A stretch of DNA of 64,000 nt from positions 10,025-74,024 of the forward strand of contig CAZFRH010000002.1 in the NCBI GenBank assembly GCA_964521235.1, in the 5' to 3' direction. The DNA comes from an uncultured Gammaproteobacteria bacterium (GTDB lineage Bacteria; Patescibacteriota; Patescibacteriia; 2-12-FULL-60-25). The stretch's first letter is position 1. Each line of letters begins with the position of its first letter. The notes beneath the pieces are model-generated. The model worked only from the letters and a program-made list of their open reading frames with translations. It did not search any database and was not told the DNA's origin. Shown piece after piece: positions 12,423 through 53,799 of the stretch. A program made the translations under genes and the position numbers.

Positions 12423-12509
12423 TGGGTCCTCCTGGACTAACCTTTGCTGGTTTTGCCCCGGTCGTCAACCGATATTTTCCGACGCACGAAGACGTGGCAT
12501 ACTAGGGGC

Positions 12510-13451
12510 ATGCCCCCCTTGTCTAAGCACCTGCGCACCTTTTTGGAGTATTTGGAGGTCGATAAAGGCCGTTCCGCCCTCACGGTCAGGAATTACGATT
12601 TTTATTTGCGCCGTTTTATTGAGTGGGCCAAGGACCCTGACCCGGCGGCGATCGACCAGGAGCTCTTACATGACTACCGCTTGCACCTGAACCGTTTGGA
12701 GAACAACCGTGACGGGTCATTGAAAAAGAGTACGCAGAACTACCATCTGATCGCCCTCCGTTCTTTTCTGAAGTTTCTAGCCAAGCGCGACATTAAGACG
12801 GTGGCGCCAGAAAAGATCGAGCTTGCGAAGCAAGGGACGCGGGAAGTCTCGTTTTTGGACGCGACGGATTTGGAGCGCCTGCTCGCCGCGCCAGACACGC
12901 TCGACCTTGCGCCGATCGTGAAGGCGCGTGACAAGGCGATCCTTGAGCTCTTTTTTTCATCCGGGATGCGCGTGTCAGAACTGGCGAGCTTAAAGCGCGA
13001 CCAATTGAATTTGAAGCGTGATGAATTTTCGGTGCGCGGCAAAGGCGATAAGGTGCGCGTGGTCTTTTTGTCGCACCAGGCGAAGCACGCACTGCAAATC
13101 TATTTTGACTTGCGCAAGGATGATTCGCCGTACGCCTTTATCCGCCACGACCGTGCGGCGGACAAGCGGAAGTCAGAAGAAAAAAAGCAGGGGCCGATCA
13201 CCTCGCGTTCCATTGAGCGGTTGGTGCGGATGTATGCGGCCGCGGCCGGCATCGTCAAAAAAGTTTCTCCGCATACGCTGCGCCACTCGTTTGCGACGGA
13301 CCTGCTTATGAACGGCGCTGACTTGCGCAGCGTCCAGGCCATGCTCGGGCACTCTTCCATCACGACCACGCAAATTTATACCCACGTCACCAACCAACAG
13401 TTGCGTGACGTCCACCAAGCTTTCCACGCCAAACGGCGCGATGACGTATGA
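12510..13451 (+). CDS. Tyrosine recombinase, XerC/XerD family
   Basis: N-terminal SAM-like domain (LRTFLEYLEVDKGRSALTVRNY) and catalytic region RHSFATDLLMNGADLRSVQAMLGHSSITTTQIYTHV. The start was set at the ATG at 12510. Confidence 0.9.
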   Translation: MPPLSKHLRTFLEYLEVDKGRSALTVRNYDFYLRRFIEWAKDPDPAAIDQELLHDYRLHLNRLENNRDGSLKKSTQNYHLIALRSFLKFLAKRDIKTVAPEKIELAKQGTREVSFLDATDLERLLAAPDTLDLAPIVKARDKAILELFFSSGMRVSELASLKRDQLNLKRDEFSVRGKGDKVRVVFLSHQAKHALQIYFDLRKDDSPYAFIRHDRAADKRKSEEKKQGPITSRSIERLVRMYAAAAGIVKKVSPHTLRHSFATDLLMNGADLRSVQAMLGHSSITTTQIYTHVTNQQLRDVHQAFHAKRRDDV

Positions 13452-18949: not shown

Positions 18950-19144
18950 CTACACGTCAAAATACCGCACCCTTCCCACCTCGCCCGTCTCGAGCCTTAC
19001 TTTGATGCCGTTGGGGTGGACGGGGGCGCTGGTTAGGATATCGCGGACCACGCCATAGGTGGCTTTTCCGGTCGGTTGGTCCTCCTTTTGGACGATGGCA
19101 ACCTTGAGTCCTGGGTAGATGTCTTTGCGGATGGTTCCGTCCAT
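18950..19144 (-). CDS. YwbE family protein
   Basis: 64 aa: RKDIYPGLKVAIVQKEDQPTGK..GVVRDILTSAPVHPNGIKVRLETGEVGRV. It closely matches B. subtilis YwbE as recalled. Confidence 0.85.
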   Translation of the reverse strand: MDGTIRKDIYPGLKVAIVQKEDQPTGKATYGVVRDILTSAPVHPNGIKVRLETGEVGRVRYFDV

Positions 19145-19220
19145 AAAAAAAGGCTAACAGAAGCGGGGGCTAAAATCAAACTATTTGGCTTTATTGAGCC
19201 TCATTTTCGCCTTTTTACCA

Positions 19221-19249
19221 TTGACAAAAGGGTGAAAAAATGGTATCTT
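19221..19249 (+). promoter_or_regulatory. Sigma70-like promoter
   Basis: TTGACA-N17-TATCTT, located 16 nt upstream of the ATG at 19265. Confidence 0.6.
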
Positions 19250-19264
19250 CATTCTTCGATCGCG

Positions 19265-19861
19265 ATGAGCGGTCGTTTTGATTCTATGACCAATTACCCA
19301 ATCGTTGGTGGATCTTCCCTCATGCTTTGGCTTGAGAAGGTTTTGGCGGTGCTTTTGCTCGCCGTCCTTGTCCATGGCCATCCGGTGCTCGCCCAAACGA
19401 GCACGGGAGCGGCTGTGGCTGAAGCCGAAGTAGCCCAGGCTGAGCCGGCTTCTGATCAGCCTACCGTGCAGGAAGTTTTGCTGCACGTGTGTGAAGAAAA
19501 CGGGTATGGCGAGGCCTGTGCCAAGACGCTCTTGGGCATGGTGTGGACCGAGTCTTCCAACCGGTCTACCGTCATCGGAGATAACGGCCGTGCGCGTGGA
19601 TACTTCCAAATCCACTATAAGCTCCACAAGATCTCCATTGCTTGTGCGGAAGACCTTGTGTGTTCCGCCAACTGGACGATTAAGTACCTGGAGCGCAACC
19701 AGTATCCGAAGTATGTGAACTACGCCGTCCAGTGCCACAACAGCTGTAACGTCAAAAACGGATATGCGGCCAAGGTGGTCCGTTATGGAAACCAGTTCTG
19801 GAACCAGCCGCTCGCCATCACCCAACCCGCTCCGATTGAGCTTGCGGTGAACGACCGTTAA
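19265..19861 (+). CDS. Secreted lytic transglycosylase (SLT-like) domain protein
   Basis: Signal/TM segment, then the SLT-like motif MVWTESSNRSTVIGDNGRARGYFQIH. The start may be 19265 or 19286. Confidence 0.65.
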   Translation: MSGRFDSMTNYPIVGGSSLMLWLEKVLAVLLLAVLVHGHPVLAQTSTGAAVAEAEVAQAEPASDQPTVQEVLLHVCEENGYGEACAKTLLGMVWTESSNRSTVIGDNGRARGYFQIHYKLHKISIACAEDLVCSANWTIKYLERNQYPKYVNYAVQCHNSCNVKNGYAAKVVRYGNQFWNQPLAITQPAPIELAVNDR

Positions 19862-19924: not shown

Positions 19925-21043
19925 TCAAGTCATAGGCAGATGTTTTTCCGCCCACCAGAGGAGCCGCTCTCCCCAGGTTGCCTGGCTGACGTTTTTTGAG
20001 ATGAGCTGTGCGAGCTCTTTGGTGAGGCTGGAGTCGGCGCCGAAGCGGTTCTTGATGAAGGCTAGTACATCCTCCGGGGTCCGCAGGGGCGCGATGCCAT
20101 GCGTATCGAGGAACGCCCCGAACAGGCGTTGAAAGGGTACGTCGCCTGGCGGCTTTGGCATCTGTGCCAGCTGGTCCGTAAAGGACCGGATCGTCTCCAG
20201 GGGGATGCGCCGCGCCATCAACCCGGCGAGGATGCTGCTCACTCCATGAGGTCGGTCAGGGATGCCGATCCGGCTCGCGAGCAAGCTTTCCATGAAGCAT
20301 TGCGCAAGGAGTTCATCGGTCACGGCTTTGCCGCGCTCCATCCGCCGCAGCACCTCGTTCCCGATGGTGAAGAGGGTGGAGGAACCTGGGAACGAACGGC
20401 TGACGTCCGCCCCCTTTTTCTTCACTAGTTGAGAGAGATGGGAGTGCCCTGATCCGAGGCTCACAAGGACCTGTATATCCGTCTTCTGTTGAAACCGTCC
20501 GCTTTTTTGGATCGCTGCGGGCAAGGATCGTGTGAGCGAATCGATGATGTGACGTTCCCGTTTTTGTTCACCCGCCGCAAACGTTTCAAAAGACGTTCGT
20601 GCGCTCGCGATCGCCTCTGCTAGGCGACCCGATCGGAACAGGCGGGCACTCTCGTCCATTTGGTGGGGGATGTTGGCATGCGTTTCGGTGACGTCCCCTG
20701 CGGGCAGATCGGCGTAGAAGATCAGCTTTTTTGAACCAGCGACAAGCTTCGCTAATTCCCGAAATTTTTCCCAGTCCTGTGGCGTCAGGTCCCGATGGTC
20801 GACACGTGCGAGGTCACCGAATAAGGCGTCCGCCTTCTTCAGCGTGTACGTCCCATCTGACACGCCCTGGAGGATTTGTTGGTCGGCCGTGGTCCAGCCG
20901 ACTAGTTCCGGAACAACGACATCCGCGTCTTTGATCCTTTCCGCGACGTTCCGCATCTCCCCCCAATGTCCATGAGGAGCAAAGGCAAAGTGGTAGTGGA
21001 CATTTTGTTCACGTCGCTCCTTCCGTTCCGGCATCTCATTCAT
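19925..21043 (-). CDS. Hypothetical protein, ~372 aa
   Basis: Long ORF with normal codon bias. The track start at 21061 is TTG; the first ATG is at 21043. No family recognised. Confidence 0.6.
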   Translation of the reverse strand: MNEMPERKERREQNVHYHFAFAPHGHWGEMRNVAERIKDADVVVPELVGWTTADQQILQGVSDGTYTLKKADALFGDLARVDHRDLTPQDWEKFRELAKLVAGSKKLIFYADLPAGDVTETHANIPHQMDESARLFRSGRLAEAIASARTSFETFAAGEQKRERHIIDSLTRSLPAAIQKSGRFQQKTDIQVLVSLGSGHSHLSQLVKKKGADVSRSFPGSSTLFTIGNEVLRRMERGKAVTDELLAQCFMESLLASRIGIPDRPHGVSSILAGLMARRIPLETIRSFTDQLAQMPKPPGDVPFQRLFGAFLDTHGIAPLRTPEDVLAFIKNRFGADSSLTKELAQLISKNVSQATWGERLLWWAEKHLPMT

Positions 21044-21110
21044 ACGCTCAGCATAAACCAAAATTCAACCCCTTCCTAGGTCGGTTTTCGTGGGGGGGTA
21101 ACCGTGTGTA

Positions 21111-21782
21111 TCACCAAGGGATCTGTTTTTTGCCAAACCAGAATCCACCGGTCGCCGGCCGCTTTTTAGCGAAATCAAAAATGCGGGCGGCTGCTTGGCT
21201 AGGGGAAAGGTCAGCGTCGCTCCCTCCCATGCCTGTCCGGACCCAGCCCGGGTGCACTGATGAGACGGCAGGTCCGGTTGCCGCGAGGCGCAGGGCGAGG
21301 GTGCGTGTATACATGTTCAGGGCCGCTTTTGAGATTTTGTAGGATGGATAATGGAGGGGGAAATGGCTCTTTTCCTTATCCACCCATGCCAAGGAACCGG
21401 CGGAAGATGAGATGTTGATGACCTGTCCGTCCTTCTTGATGGCTGGCAACATCCGTTCGGTAAAGTCGATGGTTCCAATGAGGTTGACTTCAAGCGTTTT
21501 GCGGAGTTTTTGGACAATGACAGAGGTCTCATTTTCATCCGCGAGGATGCCGGCGTTGTTGATGAGGATATCAATTTTTTTTCGCGATGCGCAAAGTTTA
21601 TCGGTACAGCGTTTAATGCTCTGTGGGGAGGAAAGGTCAAGCGGGAGCATCGTGAGGTTCGGATGCGCAAACGTTGGTTTCGTCAGGTATGTCCCGATGA
21701 TTGCATGGCCCCTGCGCAGGCCTTCTTCCGCAAGCGCGCGCCCAATGCCTTTGCTGATGCCGGTGATAAGGACAGTCTTCAT
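21111..21782 (-). CDS. Short-chain dehydrogenase/reductase (SDR)
   Basis: MKTVLITGISKGIGRAL, NNAG, and a YxxxK-type YPSYKISKAAL. The start is set at the internal ATG. Confidence 0.9.
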   Translation of the reverse strand: MKTVLITGISKGIGRALAEEGLRRGHAIIGTYLTKPTFAHPNLTMLPLDLSSPQSIKRCTDKLCASRKKIDILINNAGILADENETSVIVQKLRKTLEVNLIGTIDFTERMLPAIKKDGQVINISSSAGSLAWVDKEKSHFPLHYPSYKISKAALNMYTRTLALRLAATGPAVSSVHPGWVRTGMGGSDADLSPSQAAARIFDFAKKRPATGGFWFGKKQIPW

Positions 21783-21832
21783 GCCGAAAGTGTACCTCGT
21801 CGCACATGATCTGTCGCGCAAAAGGCCAGGAT

Positions 21833-21869
21833 CGCAAAACGCTCCCCGTTGGGGGAGCGTTTTGCGTGG
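21833..21869. repeat. Direct repeat copy 1 (terminator-like hairpin)
   Basis: CGCAAAACGCTCCCCGTTGGGGGAGCGTTTTGCGTGG. It is identical to 22875..22910 except for one extra G. Confidence 0.9.
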
Positions 21870-21912
21870 AGCTACCTGTGCATTGCTGTCCGCATTATAA
21901 AGCCTGTGTGTC

Positions 21913-22458
21913 CTAACGAAAGAAGATGGGTAAGAAAATAGTTATGCTCAATATCAGGAGAATGAGGGCGAAGATCGCAACAACTAGATTTAGCTTAGTG
22001 TCTTTATCATGTTCGGATTTATGAATGCGAGCATTTAGTAGATAGGCCAGAGAAACACTCAGCACAACAAGGACGGATGGCAAAATAATCACCAGTAATC
22101 CACTCGCTGGCCAATCAGCAAATCTACCGGAGCTTGAGCCGGGAAAATGATACATGCCGAAGACGCGACACGATTTAACCTCGGAAGCGAGTACGCCTTT
22201 TTCTGCCATGCTGACGGTGAGGCATCGCTGAACATTTATTCCTTGCAAAAGAGCAAAAAGCGTAAGCACGATTGATGCGACTAACAGAGCGCCCATCGTA
22301 TTTTGTGTGGGTCTTTTTCCTGAGATGCCTGAGTGTATGATGATCATACCGATCATCGCTAGTAGGGCGACTGGCAGAAACCAGAATCCGATGTACGGAA
22401 TGAGGAAAACGCATGCCGCGAGGACGGTCACAATGAATACTGTGTGTATTGGTTTCAT
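21913..22458 (-). CDS. AT-rich multi-pass membrane protein, ~181 aa
   Basis: 5-6 hydrophobic segments. Its composition differs markedly from the flanks. The start is set at the internal ATG (MKPIHTV). Confidence 0.6.
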   Translation of the reverse strand: MKPIHTVFIVTVLAACVFLIPYIGFWFLPVALLAMIGMIIIHSGISGKRPTQNTMGALLVASIVLTLFALLQGINVQRCLTVSMAEKGVLASEVKSCRVFGMYHFPGSSSGRFADWPASGLLVIILPSVLVVLSVSLAYLLNARIHKSEHDKDTKLNLVVAIFALILLILSITIFLPIFFR

Positions 22459-22472
22459 ACGAGCATGAAGGG

Positions 22473-22838
22473 TTATCGACCAACGTAACGATAAAAGTAT
22501 TCCGGTGTTGTCGCGTGGCACGTTTTGACGTATTTGGCTTTGTTGATCATTTCATTTGTGAACGAACCATCGCCCCCAGAAGATCCATATCTGATTCCAT
22601 CTTGCCCGAAGTACTCATAGGCGCACATGTCTTCTTGGCATCCAATTTTGACGAGAATTTTTTTTGTTGAGGTCGAGCTCTCGCAGACTTCAAAATTCAA
22701 GTTCTCGACACCAGTCTTATCCCTTTGCAGGATTTGGAATCCGATGGGAACGCCAAATTGCCTCAATGCCATCATTAGCACTAGACCAAATCCAGTGAGG
22801 ATGATAACGATAAGAACAATTCTTCTTGTTTGATTCAT
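22473..22838 (-). CDS. AT-rich small membrane-anchored Cys-containing protein, 121 aa
   Basis: MNQTRRIVLIVIILTGFGLVLMMAL followed by a soluble domain with four Cys. The longer track ORF runs across tRNA-His and is rejected. Confidence 0.55.
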   Translation of the reverse strand: MNQTRRIVLIVIILTGFGLVLMMALRQFGVPIGFQILQRDKTGVENLNFEVCESSTSTKKILVKIGCQEDMCAYEYFGQDGIRYGSSGGDGSFTNEMINKAKYVKTCHATTPEYFYRYVGR

Positions 22839-22874
22839 AGGGATTTCATCCAGGCTATCAGAATGGCCTGAAAA

Positions 22875-22910
22875 CGCAAAACGCTCCCCGTTGGGGAGCG
22901 TTTTGCGTGG
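22875..22910. repeat. Direct repeat copy 2, also the terminator hairpin just 3' of tRNA-His
   Basis: CGCAAAACGCTCCCCGTTGGGGAGCGTTTTGCGTGG. Its last 3 nt are the complement of the tRNA CCA end. Confidence 0.9.
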
Positions 22911-22983
22911 GGTGGCCAATGGGATTCGAACCCATAATAGCGGGACCACAACCCGCTGTGATAACCCTTTCACCATGGCCACC
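22908..22983 (-). tRNA. tRNA-His (anticodon GTG) with encoded G-1 and CCA
   Basis: Manual cloverleaf: G-1 plus GTGGCCA/TGGCCAC, anticodon arm GCGGG-TTGTGGT-CCCGC, T-arm ATGGG-TTCGAAT-CCCAT, discriminator C. Confidence 0.92.
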
Positions 22984-23159
22984 ACGTGCTCGCCTATGCG
23001 ACCTGGGCACTCCGTCCCGCTGCTTGCGGGACTGCATGCCCTGGTCGCGGCTGCGCTTGCTCCGCTATCGCTTCGCAATAGGGACGGCGATGCCTGCGCT
23101 TTGCTCGTCGGACTCGCAAGGGGAATCGCCGTCGCCCCAGAAACCAGCAAAGCGAGGCA

Positions 23160-23188
23160 TTTATAGCGCAGGATAGGGCATTTGGCAA
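23160..23188 (-). promoter_or_regulatory. Sigma70-like promoter reading toward tRNA-His
   Basis: The minus strand reads TTGCCA-N17-TATAAA, about 170 nt upstream of the mature tRNA 5' end. Confidence 0.55.
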
Positions 23189-23191
23189 GTG

Positions 23192-23220
23192 TTGACCGAG
23201 GGCCTATTTCTTGGTATATC
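23192..23220 (+). promoter_or_regulatory. Sigma70-like promoter for the hydrolase gene
   Basis: TTGACC-N17-TATATC, 29 nt upstream of the ATG at 23250. Confidence 0.5.
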
Positions 23221-23249
23221 CTCTCCAGTCCTTTTGAAAGAGGGGGTCC

Positions 23250-25693: not shown

Positions 25694-28069
25694 TTACATG
25701 ATCCTGACTTCTGGGAGCGGGACGATGAATTTTGTGCCTTGGGCGATGAGAGCTTCTTCGCGTTGCCGGAAACCGTTGACGAAGCTGTAGGGGAGGGCGA
25801 GCAGGTAATCTGGTTTGGCGGCGCGCATTTCTTCCTCCGTTTTGATCGGGATGTCTGAACCGATCATGTATTTGCCGGGTTTGAAGGGGTTGCTGTCAGC
25901 GGCGGCGACAATGTCCATGTTGCCCAGGCCACAGTATTGGAGGATGGTGTTGCCTTTGGTCGAGGCGCCGTAGATCCAGACGCTTTTGCCTTCTGCTTTG
26001 ATGCGCTGCAAGAAGATGCGCAGGTCATCGCGTGATTTGGCGACCCGGGCCATGAAGGCGTGGTAGGTCGCGGGGTCAAACAGCCCTTCTTGTAGTTCGC
26101 GGGCGAGGAGCGCACGGCAACGTTCGGTCTGCGGGTGGAGGGTGCTCCCTTTCTTTTTTGCAAAGACGCGGAAGCTGCCGCCGTAGACGTCGTTTTCTGC
26201 GACGTCGAACATTTCGAGGCCAGCCCGCTCGAGCAGCCAGCGCATGTGTTGCGCGGCGTAGTAGCCGGCGTGTTCGTGCACGATGTTGTCGTACATGTTG
26301 GTCCGGATCATGGCTGGGAGGTAGGCCATCTGGATCACCCAGACACCGTCGTCATCTAAACACGCGGCGGCGTCACGGACGAGCTTCAGCGGATCGTCCA
26401 GGTGGTAGAACATGGCGACGCTGAACATGAGCTTGGCCTTTTTTTGCGAGACCGCCTCAAACCGTTCGCGCGTAAAGAAGCCGCGGACGTGGGTGTAGGT
26501 CGGGTTGTCCGCCAGGAGCGACTTTACGTTTTGTGCCGGGTCGATGTTAATGAGACGGCTGCCGGTGTCGCGGAAAAAGGAGAGGAGTGTCGCGTCGTTG
26601 CCACCGATGTCCAAGATCACATCTTGCGAATCAAGCGACACGAGGTCGCGTCCGCTCTTGGCCACGTCTTCCAAAATCTTGCCCATGGAAGAGTTGGTGG
26701 AGCTGGTGTACGGATAGGCGTCGTACATGGCGGTCAGGTCAAAGCGGTGGCCGAGTTGGACTAGGCCACATGTCTCTTCACCGCGTTTGACGCACATCAC
26801 GAGGTCTAAGGGATAACGCGAGGCGTCTTTGCGGTAGGAGAGGTCGGTCGGGAAGACGGACGACAAATACTGCTCGCCGATATCAATACAGGGGACGAGT
26901 TCGGTATTGCCGCACAGGCGGCAGCGCGTGACTTTTTCTGGCTTGTCCGTCTTCTTCCACGTCTGCATGAAAGACACGACGTTGCGCGCGTCTGGAAAGG
27001 TTGGTTCTGGGTTCGTTACTTCTTGGTGGTCAACTTCACCTTCAAACGCGATGTGCAACCCGAGTTCGGCGGCGAGGTCTTTTAAGGCGATGGCGTTACG
27101 TCCGCCCACTTCATGGATCCCGGTCTTGTCCAAGTTCGCGGCGATCCAGCCGACGGACGCGTCCAGCGGCGCAAAACAGTAGCGGCTTTCGCCGGAGACG
27201 AAGACCGGCTTACCTTGTGCCATGTCAGCCAAGACGCCTTTTTGGAGGTTCTCGCTATACATGGGGCCGAGCCGCACGATGAGCGCATCCTTGCCGCACA
27301 GCTGTTCGGCCACCGCTTTGTGACGTCCGTAGACCGTGTCTGGCTGGCTGCGCGCGGAGATCGAGCTGACTTGGATGAACTTTTTGTATTTCCAGCCGTT
27401 CACCAAATCAGCCGTCTTGGTGACCGTTTCGGCAAAATCCCAGGTCGGTTCTTTTTTGGCGCGGAAGCGGGCTGACGGCATGGCACAGTTGATGACGATG
27501 TCATACTCTCGTCCGCTTAACTCGCTAGCCGTGTCTCGCGTGACTGGCACGACCTCGAGGTCGCCGCGCGCGATGAGCGCTTTGCACAGCGCGCTCCCGA
27601 CATAGCCGTTGGCTCCTACGACCGCGACGCTGCGCTTTGGTTGTTCCGGCACCTTTTCGCCCTGGAGAAAATCCACCCGTACGATCGGCGGATGGCAATC
27701 GTCCCAACGTTTGGACAGGAGGGAGATGGCGGTCACGCGGGTGATCGCATAAAAGGTGTGGGATGTGCCTTTGGGCGTCCGCACGCAGGAGCCGCGGCTC
27801 ATGTGGATCTGCTGCTCTGGCTGGTCGGGGCTGTCGCGCCAGACCATGACACCGGACCCGTCTACCACCAAAAAGTACTCATTGAATTCTGGGTGGTAGT
27901 GGTGACCACGCGTCTTGCCGGGACGGAAGTAGAGCATGTTGAACTCCACCAGCGGATCCTGTGGAAGCCAGGTAAAAATGCCGCCCCGCCCGTCGCGGAC
28001 GGTCTCGAGGTTGCAGGAGGGGATCAGGACTTCGATGGGCATAAGTTCATCGAAGTATAGGGAGGTCAA
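25694..28069 (-). CDS. Tri-domain sugar-nucleotide enzyme: FdtA/WxcM-like cupin, NAD-dependent epimerase/dehydratase, and C-methyltransferase with Zn-ribbon
   Basis: The cupin has RGHHYHPEFNEYF. The SDR has VAVVGANGYVGSAL. The Zn-ribbon is CRLCGNTELVPCIDIGEQYLSSVF, followed by a SAM-MT core (VILDIGGNDA) and a C-terminal C-methyltransferase domain. The track start is TTG; an alternative ATG lies at 28042. Confidence 0.75.
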   Translation of the reverse strand: MTSLYFDELMPIEVLIPSCNLETVRDGRGGIFTWLPQDPLVEFNMLYFRPGKTRGHHYHPEFNEYFLVVDGSGVMVWRDSPDQPEQQIHMSRGSCVRTPKGTSHTFYAITRVTAISLLSKRWDDCHPPIVRVDFLQGEKVPEQPKRSVAVVGANGYVGSALCKALIARGDLEVVPVTRDTASELSGREYDIVINCAMPSARFRAKKEPTWDFAETVTKTADLVNGWKYKKFIQVSSISARSQPDTVYGRHKAVAEQLCGKDALIVRLGPMYSENLQKGVLADMAQGKPVFVSGESRYCFAPLDASVGWIAANLDKTGIHEVGGRNAIALKDLAAELGLHIAFEGEVDHQEVTNPEPTFPDARNVVSFMQTWKKTDKPEKVTRCRLCGNTELVPCIDIGEQYLSSVFPTDLSYRKDASRYPLDLVMCVKRGEETCGLVQLGHRFDLTAMYDAYPYTSSTNSSMGKILEDVAKSGRDLVSLDSQDVILDIGGNDATLLSFFRDTGSRLINIDPAQNVKSLLADNPTYTHVRGFFTRERFEAVSQKKAKLMFSVAMFYHLDDPLKLVRDAAACLDDDGVWVIQMAYLPAMIRTNMYDNIVHEHAGYYAAQHMRWLLERAGLEMFDVAENDVYGGSFRVFAKKKGSTLHPQTERCRALLARELQEGLFDPATYHAFMARVAKSRDDLRIFLQRIKAEGKSVWIYGASTKGNTILQYCGLGNMDIVAAADSNPFKPGKYMIGSDIPIKTEEEMRAAKPDYLLALPYSFVNGFRQREEALIAQGTKFIVPLPEVRIM

Positions 28070-49157: not shown

Positions 49158-49230
49158 GTCAGACGAAGGATCTCAATCCGCTCCGTACGGAGTGAGATTC
49201 TTCACTACGTCGAACTCCGTTCAGAATGAC
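49148..49230. repeat. MITE-like palindromic repeat, variant B, flanked by the direct repeat AACCGGT
   Basis: GTCATCCTGAGTCAGACGAAGGATCTCAATCCGCTCCGTACGGAGTGAGATTCTTCAC..TTCAGAATGAC. AACCGGT occurs at 49141-49147 and at 49231-49237. Confidence 0.8.
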
Positions 49231-49282: not shown

Positions 49283-49369
49283 GCCCGGGTGGCGGAACTG
49301 GTATACGCGGAGGACTTAAAATCCTTAACCCGTAAGGGTGTGTGGGTTCGATTCCCACCCCGGGCACCA
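49283..49369 (+). tRNA. tRNA-Leu (anticodon TAA), long variable arm, CCA encoded
   Basis: Acceptor GCCCGGG/CCCGGGC, anticodon loop CTTAAAA, variable arm AACCCGTAAGGGTG, T-arm GTGGG-TTCGATT-CCCAC. Confidence 0.9.
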
Positions 49370-49421
49370 AACAAAAATAAAATGGAGTCACGATTTAGGA
49401 TTAGAAATAGCAATTAAAGTT

Positions 49422-51218
49422 ATGCAAAAATATACAGTAAACCAATATTTTGTAAGTAATATACTGAATTGGGTTCAGGAAAAGGAGATTGCGATACCAG
49501 AAATTCAGCGTCCCTTTGTTTGGGACTCCACGAAAGTCAGAGATTTGATGGATTCATTGTATAGGGGTTTCCCGATCGGCTATATCATCGCTTGGAAAAA
49601 TCCCGACGTCCGTCTTAAAGATGGCACGGTTTCTAATGGAAAGAAAGTATTAATCGACGGACAGCAACGCATTACGGCGCTGCGTGCCGCTATCCTCGGT
49701 CAGAATATTACTAATAAGGATTATAAGGAAGAGAGGATTTTTATCGCCTTTCATCCGTTATTGGAAGAATTTGCTACGCTCACTCCCGCCATTTCAAGAG
49801 ATAAGGCGTGGATACCGGATATTTCAAAACTTATGGCGAAAGAGGGAGGGTTGTTTGAGGACGTAACGGATTATTGCGATAAAAATTCCGAAGTTGACCG
49901 AAAACTTATTGAAAGAAACATTGAAAGATTGCTTCAAATCAAAAGTAAGCAGATAGGTTTCATTGAGCTTGACGCGAATTTGGACATAGAGACGGTTACG
50001 GAAATTTTTATCCGTATTAACTCCAAAGGCGTTGTTTTGAGTCAGGCTGATTTTGCTATGTCCAAAATTGCGTCTTACGACAAGGAGGATAATTTCGGTG
50101 TCAATCTGCGAAAGTGTATTGACTACTTCTGCCATCTCTCGCGTGAGCCGCAATTTTATAAGCATATCAGCGAAAATGATACCGAATTCAAAAATACGAT
50201 GTATCTTTCAAAAATTGCGTGGCTGAAAGATGAGAATGACGATTTGTACGACCCGGATTATTCCGATGTTTTGCGCGTAAGCTTCACGAAACAATTTGAG
50301 CGCGGGAAAATGGCTGATTTGGTTGGCTTGCTTTCCGGTCGCAATTTCGAGACGCGTAGTTTTGAGCAAAATATTATGGACGAGTCATTCCAAAAATTAC
50401 GCGACTCGGTTTTGGACTTTGTCAGCGAGACGAATTTCAAGCGTTTCGTAATGATTATAAAATCGTGTGGCTTTACCTCAAACGATTTAATTAATTCCCA
50501 AAACGCTCTTAACTTTGCGTATATCCTGTTCTTGAAATTGCGTGAAAAAGGAGAAAATCCTAGCGTTATAGAAAAATGTGTTCAGCGCTGGTTTGTCATG
50601 TCCCTTTTGACCGGACGCTATTCGGGTTCACCGGAAAGTCAATTTGACTTTGACATCAAACAAGTTTCCAAAGACGGTGCAGAGAGGATCTTACAATCCA
50701 TTGAGGACGCACAGCTCTCGGACGCATATTGGAACGCTCAGCTGATTCAAGAACTGGATAAGGCTAGCGTCAATAATCCATTCCTTAATCTACTTTTTGC
50801 TGCTCAAATCAAGGCTAATGACAAGGGTTTTCTTTCAACTGATATTTCCGTAGGCAACATGATTAACCACCGAGGCGATATTCATCACTTGTTCCCGAGA
50901 GAGTATCTGAAAGCAAACGGCTTTGAGCGCGGCGATTACAATCAAATTGCAAATTTTGTTTATGCGCAATCTGAAATAAACATTAAAGTCGGCAAGAAAG
51001 CACCAAAAGATTACATGTCGGAAGTTATCAAGCAAACACGGGGCGGGGAACTCAAATATGGCGGTATTACCGACGGGGGCACCCTCGCTGAAAACTTGAA
51101 GCAAAATTGTATTCCGGCTGGATTTGAGGAAATGGAAGCGGGCGATTATGAAGATTTTCTTAAAGCGCGTCGCAAGCTAATGGCGAAGAAAATAAAGGAT
51201 TTTTATTTCAGTTTGTAA
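49422..51218 (+). CDS. GmrSD-type (DUF262 plus DUF1524/HNH-like) putative modification-dependent restriction endonuclease
   Basis: N-terminal IPEIQRPFVW and LIDGQQRITAL. C-terminal GDIHHLFPREYL...NFVYAQSEINIKVGKK. Strongly AT-rich relative to the flanks. Confidence 0.8.
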   Translation: MQKYTVNQYFVSNILNWVQEKEIAIPEIQRPFVWDSTKVRDLMDSLYRGFPIGYIIAWKNPDVRLKDGTVSNGKKVLIDGQQRITALRAAILGQNITNKDYKEERIFIAFHPLLEEFATLTPAISRDKAWIPDISKLMAKEGGLFEDVTDYCDKNSEVDRKLIERNIERLLQIKSKQIGFIELDANLDIETVTEIFIRINSKGVVLSQADFAMSKIASYDKEDNFGVNLRKCIDYFCHLSREPQFYKHISENDTEFKNTMYLSKIAWLKDENDDLYDPDYSDVLRVSFTKQFERGKMADLVGLLSGRNFETRSFEQNIMDESFQKLRDSVLDFVSETNFKRFVMIIKSCGFTSNDLINSQNALNFAYILFLKLREKGENPSVIEKCVQRWFVMSLLTGRYSGSPESQFDFDIKQVSKDGAERILQSIEDAQLSDAYWNAQLIQELDKASVNNPFLNLLFAAQIKANDKGFLSTDISVGNMINHRGDIHHLFPREYLKANGFERGDYNQIANFVYAQSEINIKVGKKAPKDYMSEVIKQTRGGELKYGGITDGGTLAENLKQNCIPAGFEEMEAGDYEDFLKARRKLMAKKIKDFYFSL

Positions 51219-53716: not shown

Positions 53717-53799
53717 GTCATCCTGAGTCTGACGAAGGATCTCAATCCGCTCCGTACGGAGTGAGATTCTTCACTCCGTAGGACTGCGTTCAGAATGAC
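53717..53799. repeat. MITE-like palindromic repeat, variant B, second copy
   Basis: Near-identical to 49148..49230, with a few substitutions. Confidence 0.85.

Follow-up and report, generated by a model that had tools for sequence, protein, structure and literature searches.

In the window, that is the whole 64,000-nt stretch of DNA analysed here, two nearly identical repeats of 36 and 37 nt enclose an AT-rich two-gene segment of 1 kb at the 3' end of tRNA-His. The locus raises the question of how this segment came to lie there and what kind of element may have brought it. The explanation that we favour, at a probability of roughly 0.6, is that the segment, next to the tRNA, was the last unit to join a small island that has grown by repeated site-specific insertion, the junctions between its units being attachment-site scars of the large serine recombinase (LSR) family.

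The repeat and the segment that it encloses

The anchor of the island (attB side) is tRNA-His (GTG) at 22908-22982 on the minus strand, which was detected by ARAGORN and by the Rfam tRNA model with 60 bits and has both G-1 and CCA encoded. Its current terminator is the proximal repeat, H2 (22875-22910, minus strand, 36 nt), composed of the CCA at 22908-22910 and a hairpin of 15-16 bp, followed by TTTT. The distal repeat, H1 (21833-21869, minus strand, 37 nt), likewise consists of CCA and a perfect 15-bp hairpin and has no T-run after it. Both copies carry the perfect 15-bp hairpin CGCAAAACGCTCCCC/GGGGAGCGTTTTGCG plus TGG, and one additional loop base in H1 is the sole difference between them. 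Read on the minus strand, the TGG of H2 is the CCA end of tRNA-His, and the repeat takes in just these 3 nt of the tRNA gene itself. The two copies and the overlap of the second with the CCA end, both described in the sequence-only reading, are confirmed. A search of the whole 0.91-Mb genome yielded no further copy of the hairpin sequence; exact direct repeats of at least 22 nt within 10 kb number about 28 genome-wide.

An assembly artefact, that is a collapsed or chimeric join, had been named as one of the findings that would undo this picture. The genome is indeed a 50-contig metagenome bin whose contig ends carry k-mer-length overlaps. However, the repeat measures 36 nt, not 55, and sits mid-way in a 98-kb contig, and the independent ENA assembly of a related strain, L010, has both copies in the same order with point differences of its own, which rules out an artefact for all practical purposes.

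The segment is foreign in composition. The 1,005 bp between H1 and H2 have a GC content of 44.8%, compared with 56-59% in the flanks and 58.2% in the genome, in agreement with the AT-richness previously ascribed to them. GC3 is 0.48 in ORF1 and 0.47 in ORF2 against a genome mean of 0.68 ± 0.09, and both genes fall into the lowest 3-4%.

The two genes are of the kind described before, one for a membrane-anchored Cys protein and one for a polytopic membrane protein. ORF2 (22473-22838, minus strand, 121 aa) has one N-terminal TM helix and a domain of ~85 aa with four conserved Cys, ending in TTPEYFYRYVGR; the protein is a member of a small orphan family. The region upstream of ORF2 (22839-22874, minus strand, TTTTCAGGCCATTCTGATAGCCTGGATGAAATCCCT) shares homology with the sequence after the same hairpin in the relative L012. 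ORF1 (21913-22458, minus strand, 181 aa) has 4-5 TM segments and a conserved loop, QG(L/I)NVQRCL...EKGV.ASE..SCR.FGMY, with two Cys. Purifying selection acts on both genes (dN/dS 0.17 for ORF2 and 0.16-0.25 for ORF1), and their products probably act together on the outward-facing side of the membrane. An exclusion or immunity module, the role suggested earlier, is a conceivable one. Neither protein gave a match above threshold in Pfam, PHROGs or PADLOC, and the AlphaFold2 models of both had a mean pLDDT of about 52. A profile search with ORF2 among 1.8 billion representatives yielded no more than three small relatives, all of them remote, and a spurious mucin match, an exact-sequence look-up of ORF2 returned no additional contigs, and protein-based locus searches of metagenome and genome contigs returned no true matches. 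No integrase is encoded between H1 and H2, where these two genes are the only ones, and 'remnant or satellite-type cargo' is a fair description of the segment.

Older units behind the segment

Starting from the tRNA, the order of the locus is tRNA-His, H2-ORF2-ORF1, H1-SDR and H0-378aa. The second unit holds a short-chain dehydrogenase gene (SDR; 21111-21782, minus strand) with host-like GC, which was found in just 3 of 120 other family genomes searched; homologues elsewhere have no preceding tRNA tails, and the idea of the SDR as a common cassette was rejected. The third and oldest unit is a 378-aa gene (19925-21061, minus strand), after which come a bidirectional terminator and a convergent 261-aa gene (19076-19861, plus strand). 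The latter marks the distal edge of the variable region, and its homologue closes the array in L007, L008 and L046. The junction ahead of the 378-aa gene, J3/H0 (21040-21101, minus strand), is made up of ACCCCCCCA, a decayed hairpin (CGAAAACCGACC..GGGTTGAATTTTGG) and TTTATGCTGAGC. This displaced copy of the family-typical tRNA-His 3' flank aligns with the corresponding flanks of G011, G012, G017 and L040, which belong to other genera, including ~15 nt past the hairpin, and is the oldest scar of the stack. Two displaced units of tail and hairpin are thus present, 1.04 and 1.8 kb from tRNA-His. Hairpin integrity drops with distance from the tRNA gene, with fold energies of -28.9 kcal/mol for H2 (z -7.2), -33.2 kcal/mol for H1 (z -6.2) and -14 kcal/mol for H0 (z 0.34). 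The earlier proposal of an integration event stands as far as insertion at the tRNA-His 3' end is concerned, but the event was not a lone one: three units are stacked here, the segment being one of them, and an older tail precedes the 378-aa gene.

We propose a succession of insertions, each placed after the CCA end of tRNA-His and ahead of its terminator. Each arriving element would supply its own hairpin as the new tRNA-His terminator and would shift the previous 'CCA + hairpin' further from the tRNA. H2 would then belong to the ORF2-ORF1 unit; H1, which we read as the previous terminator displaced by that unit, would have arrived with the SDR unit, and the decayed H0 (about 21052-21099) would be the terminator that preceded H1. 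Both units may come from one element family with the hairpin as part of its attachment site, and this shared source would account for the near-identity of H1 and H2, which could alternatively result from gene conversion or homologous recombination at the hairpin.

The insertion is common to L010, whose flanks show differences of 1-13%, and module and flanks have diverged together; therefore, the insertion is not recent, even though ORF2-ORF1 is the most recently added unit of the stack. The genes behind tRNA-His differ among the relatives examined. No empty site was found, and L010, the sole close relative, is filled in the same way.

The co-divergence of module and flanks between the window and L010, together with dN/dS values of 0.16-0.25, would also suit a history in which ORF2 and ORF1 have long adjoined tRNA-His and were inherited vertically. 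Membrane-protein composition and low expression would then account for their low GC, and H1 would be a local terminator duplicate that ends the operon and was homogenised with H2 by gene conversion. In agreement with such a history, the pair adjoins tRNA-His in three lineages, and in L007 and L046 it neighbours the same convergent 261-aa gene. We nevertheless consider it improbable. Amino-acid composition does not set GC3, yet this value is very low as well (0.47-0.48 vs 0.68); the pair is missing in 40 of 40 sampled relatives, and the CCA ahead of H1 would be superfluous in a simple terminator duplication. Moreover, a tRNA-His tail with terminator precedes both the SDR and the 378-aa gene, and therefore each of these once abutted tRNA-His, before the ORF2-ORF1 module.

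Comparison with other genomes supports insertion at this site. tRNA-His was located in 17 relatives from the family or class, 16 of which have a hairpin of the same build and varied sequence against the tRNA 3' end. The ORF2-ORF1 pair adjoins tRNA-His in another lineage (L040-L045), and in L007 and L012 it has been displaced from the tRNA by other units, the junctions there reading each time from a recombinase-tail motif through ACCCCA into a hairpin. The att-like duplication noted earlier is present here and in L010, but a second copy was not seen where homologous pairs adjoin tRNA-His in other lineages. Since the hairpin stems of the window and L012 are identical at 30 of 30 positions although synonymous divergence of ORF1 from the L012 group is saturated (dS 1.4, measured against L011), the sequences suggest that the hairpin is a constrained site. 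Scans of three collections (viral, genome and metagenome contigs) with a hairpin pattern gave no matches.

Recombinase tails at junctions of relatives and possible traces in the window

A conserved motif of 72-75 nt closes the units behind tRNA-His in part of the family. With a tightened search pattern, whose first, degenerate version had mostly matched conserved coding sequence, this junction motif was found in 31 of 127 family genomes and 16 of 33 genera, and the reversed control never matched. At 18 loci the motif is found downstream of tRNA-His, on the strand of the tRNA and at a distance of 0.7-18 kb. Read in reverse complement, it gives W-GHIVEVVRTAIANLPPCSFIPDY-stop, in the frame of the hairpin-encoded peptide, and is the severed end of an LSR, comprising its last ~25 codons. 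The hairpin adjoining tRNA-His in the relatives encodes the ~12 residues before the LSR tail. In G002 and G066 an intact LSR (Resolvase + Recombinase + Zn_ribbon_recom) abuts tRNA-His, and in G064 and G072 one abuts a tail motif; G088 holds an LSR stump of 52 codons. A structured RNA or tRNA-like gene was rejected as the identity of the motif: it had no Rfam match, its folds were weak and inconsistent, and variation at position 4 was uncompensated on the opposite side, the motif being coding on the other strand instead.

In the relatives, the end of the LSR gene spans attP, and the hairpin encodes the residues just before the putative crossover. Integration severs the last ~25 LSR codons, which stay behind at the far junction.

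At the tRNA-His locus of the window no LSR gene or fragment was found. The only LSR of the genome lies at tRNA-Glu, 28 kb away, and nhmmer detected the canonical 75-nt DNA motif nowhere in the genome. Peptides encoded by the hairpins nevertheless fit a profile of the LSR tail. The opposite strand of H2 encodes KTLPVGERFA-W, resembling the penultimate LSR segment (K[TI]P..E.F[SA]-W), and H0 encodes KFNPFLGRFS-W; the scores of these peptides against a profile of the LSR tail were reached by 0 of 1000 shuffles each. Between the ORF1 stop and the distal CCA lies a spacer (21870-21912, minus strand), the plus strand of which reads W-SYLCIAVRIIKPVC... in frame with the TGG. H1 plus this spacer, noticed after inspection of the sequence, scored a weak 2.4 bits against the tail profile, reached by 15 of 1000 shuffles (p about 0.015), and the spacer may be a diverged, severed recombinase tail (element-side arm).

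The view that the repeats arose, att-like, when DNA was inserted at the 3' end of tRNA-His is supported. The repeat begins at CCA. The likely enzyme is an LSR with attP in its own 3' end, as seen in the relatives, from which we infer both the enzyme and the crossover point at this locus. The ORF2-ORF1 unit would have been delivered by such an LSR, since lost or acting in trans, and an excised circle, if formed, would join ...GGTAGCT-CCA-hairpin-TTTTCAGG. Against this reading, serine integrases would need some relaxation of site choice before an attL-type site could be expected to take a further insertion.

An insertion event that involved no site-specific enzyme is an unlikely but not far-fetched alternative, in which a circular or linear DNA carrying hairpin, ORF2 and ORF1 recombined with the resident terminator by RecA at the shared 36 nt. 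The repeat is exactly the stretch that the partners would have had in common (CCA + hairpin), with similarity ending sharply on both sides, the same hairpin is linked with the module in L012, and no recombinase is present at the locus. On the other hand, 36 bp is close to the lower limit for RecA-dependent exchange, and a dedicated site-specific system acts at exactly this junction in relatives. The older scar H0 has a different hairpin, and therefore at least that insertion took place without hairpin homology.

Considerably less probable is an origin by a tyrosine-recombinase or integron-like system, with the hairpins as recombination sites (like attC, dif or pdif) for the Xer-like recombinase encoded at 12444-13451. 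This Phage_integrase-family gene is 9.4 kb off in the window and about 1 kb from tRNA-His in L007, and the size of the hairpin and its perfect inverted symmetry would suit such a site. Yet the Xer-like enzyme is the genome's sole tyrosine recombinase and is syntenic with tRNA-Arg, as expected of a chromosome-dimer resolvase, and the hairpins have no attC-like bulges and matched no Rfam family. In the arrays of relatives, moreover, the hairpins vary from unit to unit, and the invariant part is ACCCCA plus the recombinase-tail motif. For this variation within arrays the hairpin itself was also rejected as a crossover site of the loxP, dif or attC kind. A long target duplication of the Cas1/casposon type was dropped, as no terminal inverted repeats were seen when the segment ends were read and there is no cas1 among the ORFs of the region.

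Related systems and meaning for CPR genomes

The serine-recombinase island that we favour resembles Islander-type tRNA islands (PMC4383910) and the tycheposons of Prochlorococcus (10.1101/2020.12.28.424599) in that insertion takes place at the 3' end of a tRNA gene, the target is restored and a displaced copy is found at the far end. About 97% of tycheposons encode a tyrosine recombinase (10.1101/2020.12.28.424599), whereas the enzyme in relatives of this locus is an LSR. Shared features are also that later arrivals push older units outward, that integrase-less remnants pile up and that the cargo has low GC. Here, however, the duplicated target comprises only CCA and the terminator hairpin and no 3' part of the tRNA body, each unit is tiny, with one or two genes in 0.7-1.3 kb, and the hosts are CPR bacteria with 0.9-Mb genomes.

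Serine integrases with attP/attB/attL/attR systems are known from phiC31, Bxb1 and A118, and staphylococci carry SCC composite islands. As in the relatives studied here, the LSR of serine-integrase systems (Resolvase, Recombinase, Zn-ribbon) lies at the element end by the target, and crossover identity is short; the ccr-less pseudo-SCC units resemble the stacked recombinase-less units with half-sites between them. Unlike in all these systems, the element here targets the 3' end of a tRNA rather than a protein-coding gene, the recombinase gene itself contains attP within its 3' end, and the window locus has neither LSR nor canonical half-site.

A recombination site within the integrase frame is likewise found in archaeal SSV-type 'suicidal' integrases (PMC7253208), where the enzyme's gene is split by integration at a tRNA gene and each junction retains a part of it, and in both cases the splitting tends to trap the element. 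The SSV-type enzymes are tyrosine recombinases split roughly mid-gene (PMC7253208), but the serine recombinase of the relatives loses just its last ~25 codons, for which the tRNA sequence gives a short substitute end (..W-GGQWDSNP-stop).

Integrons and CALINs (attC clusters without integrase) also have cassettes of 1-2 genes in one orientation on a fixed platform, with hairpin sites at the boundaries and the newest unit nearest. In contrast, neither an IntI beside the array nor attC sites with R/L boxes and extrahelical bases were found here; the hairpins at the boundaries are perfect terminators of an ordinary kind, free to vary in sequence, and the conserved boundary element is a linear sequence encoding the recombinase tail. 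As a tentative extension, CPR bacteria of this family might possess a serine-recombinase counterpart of the integron at tRNA-His, in which an LSR acting in trans would capture recombinase-less cassettes of 1-2 genes at the CCA end, stack them and exchange them. A single short hairpin would serve as tRNA terminator, coding sequence for the LSR C-terminal region and half attachment site, and ORF2-ORF1 would be a cassette of a second, diverged recombinase subfamily with the 'W-type' hairpin that is common to L012.

CPR bacteria (Patescibacteria) have tiny genomes with few recognised mobile elements, and how they gain accessory genes is therefore poorly understood. For the window itself the practical value is more modest: the repeat is explained, ORF2-ORF1, the SDR and the 378-aa gene are marked as accessory cargo, and ORF1 and ORF2 stand out as a conserved orphan pair of surface-exposed membrane proteins that deserve tests. 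Together with its relatives, the locus shows a fixed entry point behind tRNA-His at which small foreign units accumulate, their order giving a relative time line. The relatives also display a marked economy: the end of the recombinase gene spans its own attachment site, with the same hairpin doubling as the tRNA terminator. Should recombinase-less units indeed move in trans, this would amount to a gene-capture platform distinct from integrons.

Repeat copies and gene pair at tRNA-His

Both repeat copies that the sequence-only reading had placed at the 3' end of tRNA-His (22908-22982, minus strand) were found. The distal copy H1 (21833-21869) and the tRNA-proximal copy H2 (22875-22910) each consist of a perfect 15-bp hairpin plus TGG, the sole difference being one additional loop base in H1, and the TGG of H2 is the CCA end of the minus-strand tRNA-His. 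Fold energies were -28.9 kcal/mol for H2 and -33.2 kcal/mol for H1 (z -7.2 and -6.2 versus shuffled sequence). The hairpin sequence occurs only twice in the 0.91-Mb, 97.8% complete genome, for which a genome-wide count gave about 28 exact direct repeats of at least 22 nt within 10 kb. Elsewhere in the window, a 45-nt exact direct repeat (GACGAAGGATCTCAATCCGCTCCGTACGGAGTGAGATTCTTCACT; 49162-49206 and 53731-53775) belongs to a dispersed palindromic family present on several contigs (GTCATCC..GAAGGATCTC..GAGATTCTTC).

An independent ENA assembly of a close strain (L010) contains both copies in identical order with its own point differences; thus, the repeat is not an assembly artefact, which settles a concern raised earlier. 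Scans of sequence collections turned up no empty site, and L010 is itself filled. Mismatches between the window and L010 flank H1 on both sides (22 in 300 nt, 21700-21999), with none in H1 and its 43-nt spacer, and this cluster may mark a recombination boundary. The 267 nt upstream of tRNA-His (22983-23249) were 100% identical in the two strains, as fits a constrained leader, and the gene beyond it (23250 onward) showed only 87% identity.

The 1,005 bp between the repeats were as AT-rich as claimed, with 44.8% GC compared with 56-59% in the flanks and 58.2% in the genome, and contained the two genes described from sequence. ORF2 (22473-22838, minus strand) encodes 121 aa, with a single TM helix at the N terminus and a C-terminal domain in which four Cys are conserved, and ORF1 (21913-22458, minus strand) encodes 181 aa with 4-5 TM helices and a conserved loop with two invariant Cys. 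By the positive-inside rule, we infer that the Cys-bearing parts of both proteins face outward. GC3 was 0.47-0.48, within the lowest 3-4% of genes (genome 0.68 +/- 0.09). Pfam, PHROGs and PADLOC gave nothing above threshold for either protein; among 5.8 billion clusters three homologues of ORF2 and six of ORF1 were found, a profile search added three remote ORF2 relatives, and the AlphaFold2 models were poor (pLDDT ~52). The dN/dS values of 0.16-0.25 show that ORF1 and ORF2 are real genes under purifying selection; a role in exclusion, immunity or surface interaction would be a guess.

Units stacked behind tRNA-His

Further units follow the gene pair. Between the stop of a short-chain dehydrogenase gene (SDR), whose named homologues suggest that the genome belongs to the Patescibacteria/Parcubacteria group, and a 378-aa gene, the minus strand reads ACCCCCCCA, then CGAAAACCGACC-TAGGAAG-GGGTTGAATTTTGG, then TTTATGCTGAGC. 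This stretch, which includes the older decayed hairpin H0, aligns with the tRNA-His tail, the terminator and the first ~15 downstream bases of three relatives (G011, G012, G017) and of locus L040, and folds no better than shuffled sequence (z 0.34). The displaced tail and terminator before the 378-aa gene give the order tRNA-His, H2-ORF2-ORF1, CCA-H1-SDR, ACCCCCCCA-H0-378aa. Since tRNA tail and terminator precede both SDR and the 378-aa gene, both once abutted the tRNA, and the ORF2-ORF1 unit was therefore the last to arrive or re-arrive. The att-like insertion proposed earlier agrees with these scars, but it was not a lone insertion, since the SDR and 378-aa units are stacked as well. The arrival of the pair was not recent, its identity to L010 (97.8-99.7%) falling inside the flank range (87-99%).

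The distal end of the stack is formed by the 378-aa gene, a terminator and a convergent 261-aa gene. In relatives L007/L008, too, the array closes with a homologue of the 261-aa gene and, behind it, a DUF2196 gene, so the stretch from tRNA-His to this gene is a variable region.

SCC composite islands are one of the closest described systems. The others are islands anchored at tRNA genes, in which fragments of the target are displaced (PMC4383910), SSV-type integrases, which cut their own gene upon integration (PMC7253208), and tycheposon islands, in which older arrivals are pushed further in by later ones and remnants accumulate (10.1101/2020.12.28.424599). Stacks of serine-recombinase units at the tRNA genes of CPR bacteria did not turn up in a limited literature search.

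Relatives' tRNA-His loci and recombinase tails

A hairpin directly 3' of tRNA-His was present in 16 of the 17 family or class relatives in which this tRNA was located, of the same build (A-run, GC stem, T-run) and variable in sequence, and the genes downstream vary by genus. A box TTTAT(G/T)CTGA(T)GC lies behind the terminator in several genera, whatever the next gene (window 21040-21060; L018; L034); leaderless transcripts may start from it as a promoter, or it may belong to the attachment site. The ORF2-ORF1 pair was found in four further contexts: straight after tRNA-His and a hairpin of other sequence, no second copy of which was seen (L040-L045); behind an additional 345-aa gene (L007/L008/L046); behind four additional units (L012); and adjoining RecO (L011). 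In L007 and L012, a third conserved gene (158-165 aa) lies downstream of ORF1, and of ORF2 no more than the first ~10 codons are left, fused immediately before the start of ORF1 (L007:6509-6545, L012:4157-4192), hence ORF1 can persist without ORF2.

The start of contig L012 reads as the last bases of a tRNA-His gene, with five units behind it, and most of its junctions read ...CCTCGACGATGTGA-CC(CC)A-hairpin. Extending this pattern gave a 72-75-nt tail motif ending in ACCCCA. Of the 127 family genomes, 31 carry it (16 of 33 genera); a reversed control gave no occurrence. Its distance downstream of tRNA-His, on the strand of the tRNA, is 0.7-18 kb at 18 loci, some of which have two copies. Rfam gave no match to the motif, and its folds were neither stable nor consistent. 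Read in the frame set by TGG, which complements CCA, the reverse complement of nearly every copy encodes W-GHIVEVVRTAIANLPPCSFIPDY-stop, and the ~12 residues before this tail are encoded by the hairpin, which fits a reading of the motif as the severed end of a recombinase gene.

In G002, tRNA-His and one tail motif enclose an 18-kb element. Its 538-aa large serine recombinase (LSR), with Resolvase, Recombinase and Zn-ribbon domains, is convergent with the tRNA and runs into it, and the element further encodes a copper-type ATPase and a protein with a Toprim domain. A homologous LSR occupies the equivalent place in G066, those of G064 and G072 lie right behind the tail motif with the full tail restored, and G088 retains a 52-codon LSR stump. 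The relatives show the pattern of a serine integrase with attP within the 3' end of its own gene, in which the hairpin stays at the tRNA upon integration and the tail ends up at the far junction. In G088, tRNA-Arg(TCT) and tRNA-Ile(TAT) lie in the first unit behind tRNA-His, just ahead of a tail motif (L080, G088:C2:12789-13860), so tRNA genes may travel as cargo.

Recombinase and putative tail traces in the window's genome

The canonical tail DNA motif was absent from the window's whole genome. Its sole LSR (511 aa, G000:C2:3204-4739) is convergent with and overlaps the 3' end of tRNA-Glu(TTC) (c4699-4773), 28 kb from the tRNA-His locus; the element (G000:C2:1-4773) lies outside the window on the same contig, ~5-10 kb before the window's start. 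A second tRNA here hosts an LSR element, arranged as at the relatives' tRNA-His. Behind the LSR, 3 kb of cargo with 40-45% GC reach the contig end.

Two other tRNA calls concern the window itself. tRNA-Leu(TAA) is directly followed by a 626-aa gene with 41% GC and a GC3 among the genome's lowest (49283-51218), which may be another tRNA-adjacent insertion. A 101-nt 'tRNA-Lys' called by ARAGORN within a 791-aa fusion-enzyme gene (25947-26047) is probably a false positive.

At the tRNA-His locus, the peptides encoded by H2 (KTLPVGERFA-W) and H0 (KFNPFLGRFS-W) scored above all 1000 shuffles against the profile of relatives' tails. H1 with its spacer (KRSPLGERFA-W-SYLCIAVRIIKPVC) matched weakly, its score being reached by 15 of 1000 shuffles, and its additional loop base puts it in another frame than H2 and L012, as would be expected once a scar has stopped coding. 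The likeness of the copies could alternatively reflect homologous recombination at a shared hairpin, or local duplication followed by gene conversion. Hairpin stems of the window and L012 were identical (30/30) even though ORF1 of the window and that of L012's group have diverged to synonymous saturation (dS 1.4 against L011), which fits a constrained site. Our conclusion is that a single unsampled recombinase subfamily, the enzyme of which we infer, made two insertions here in succession, and that H1 and H2 are their element-borne halves.
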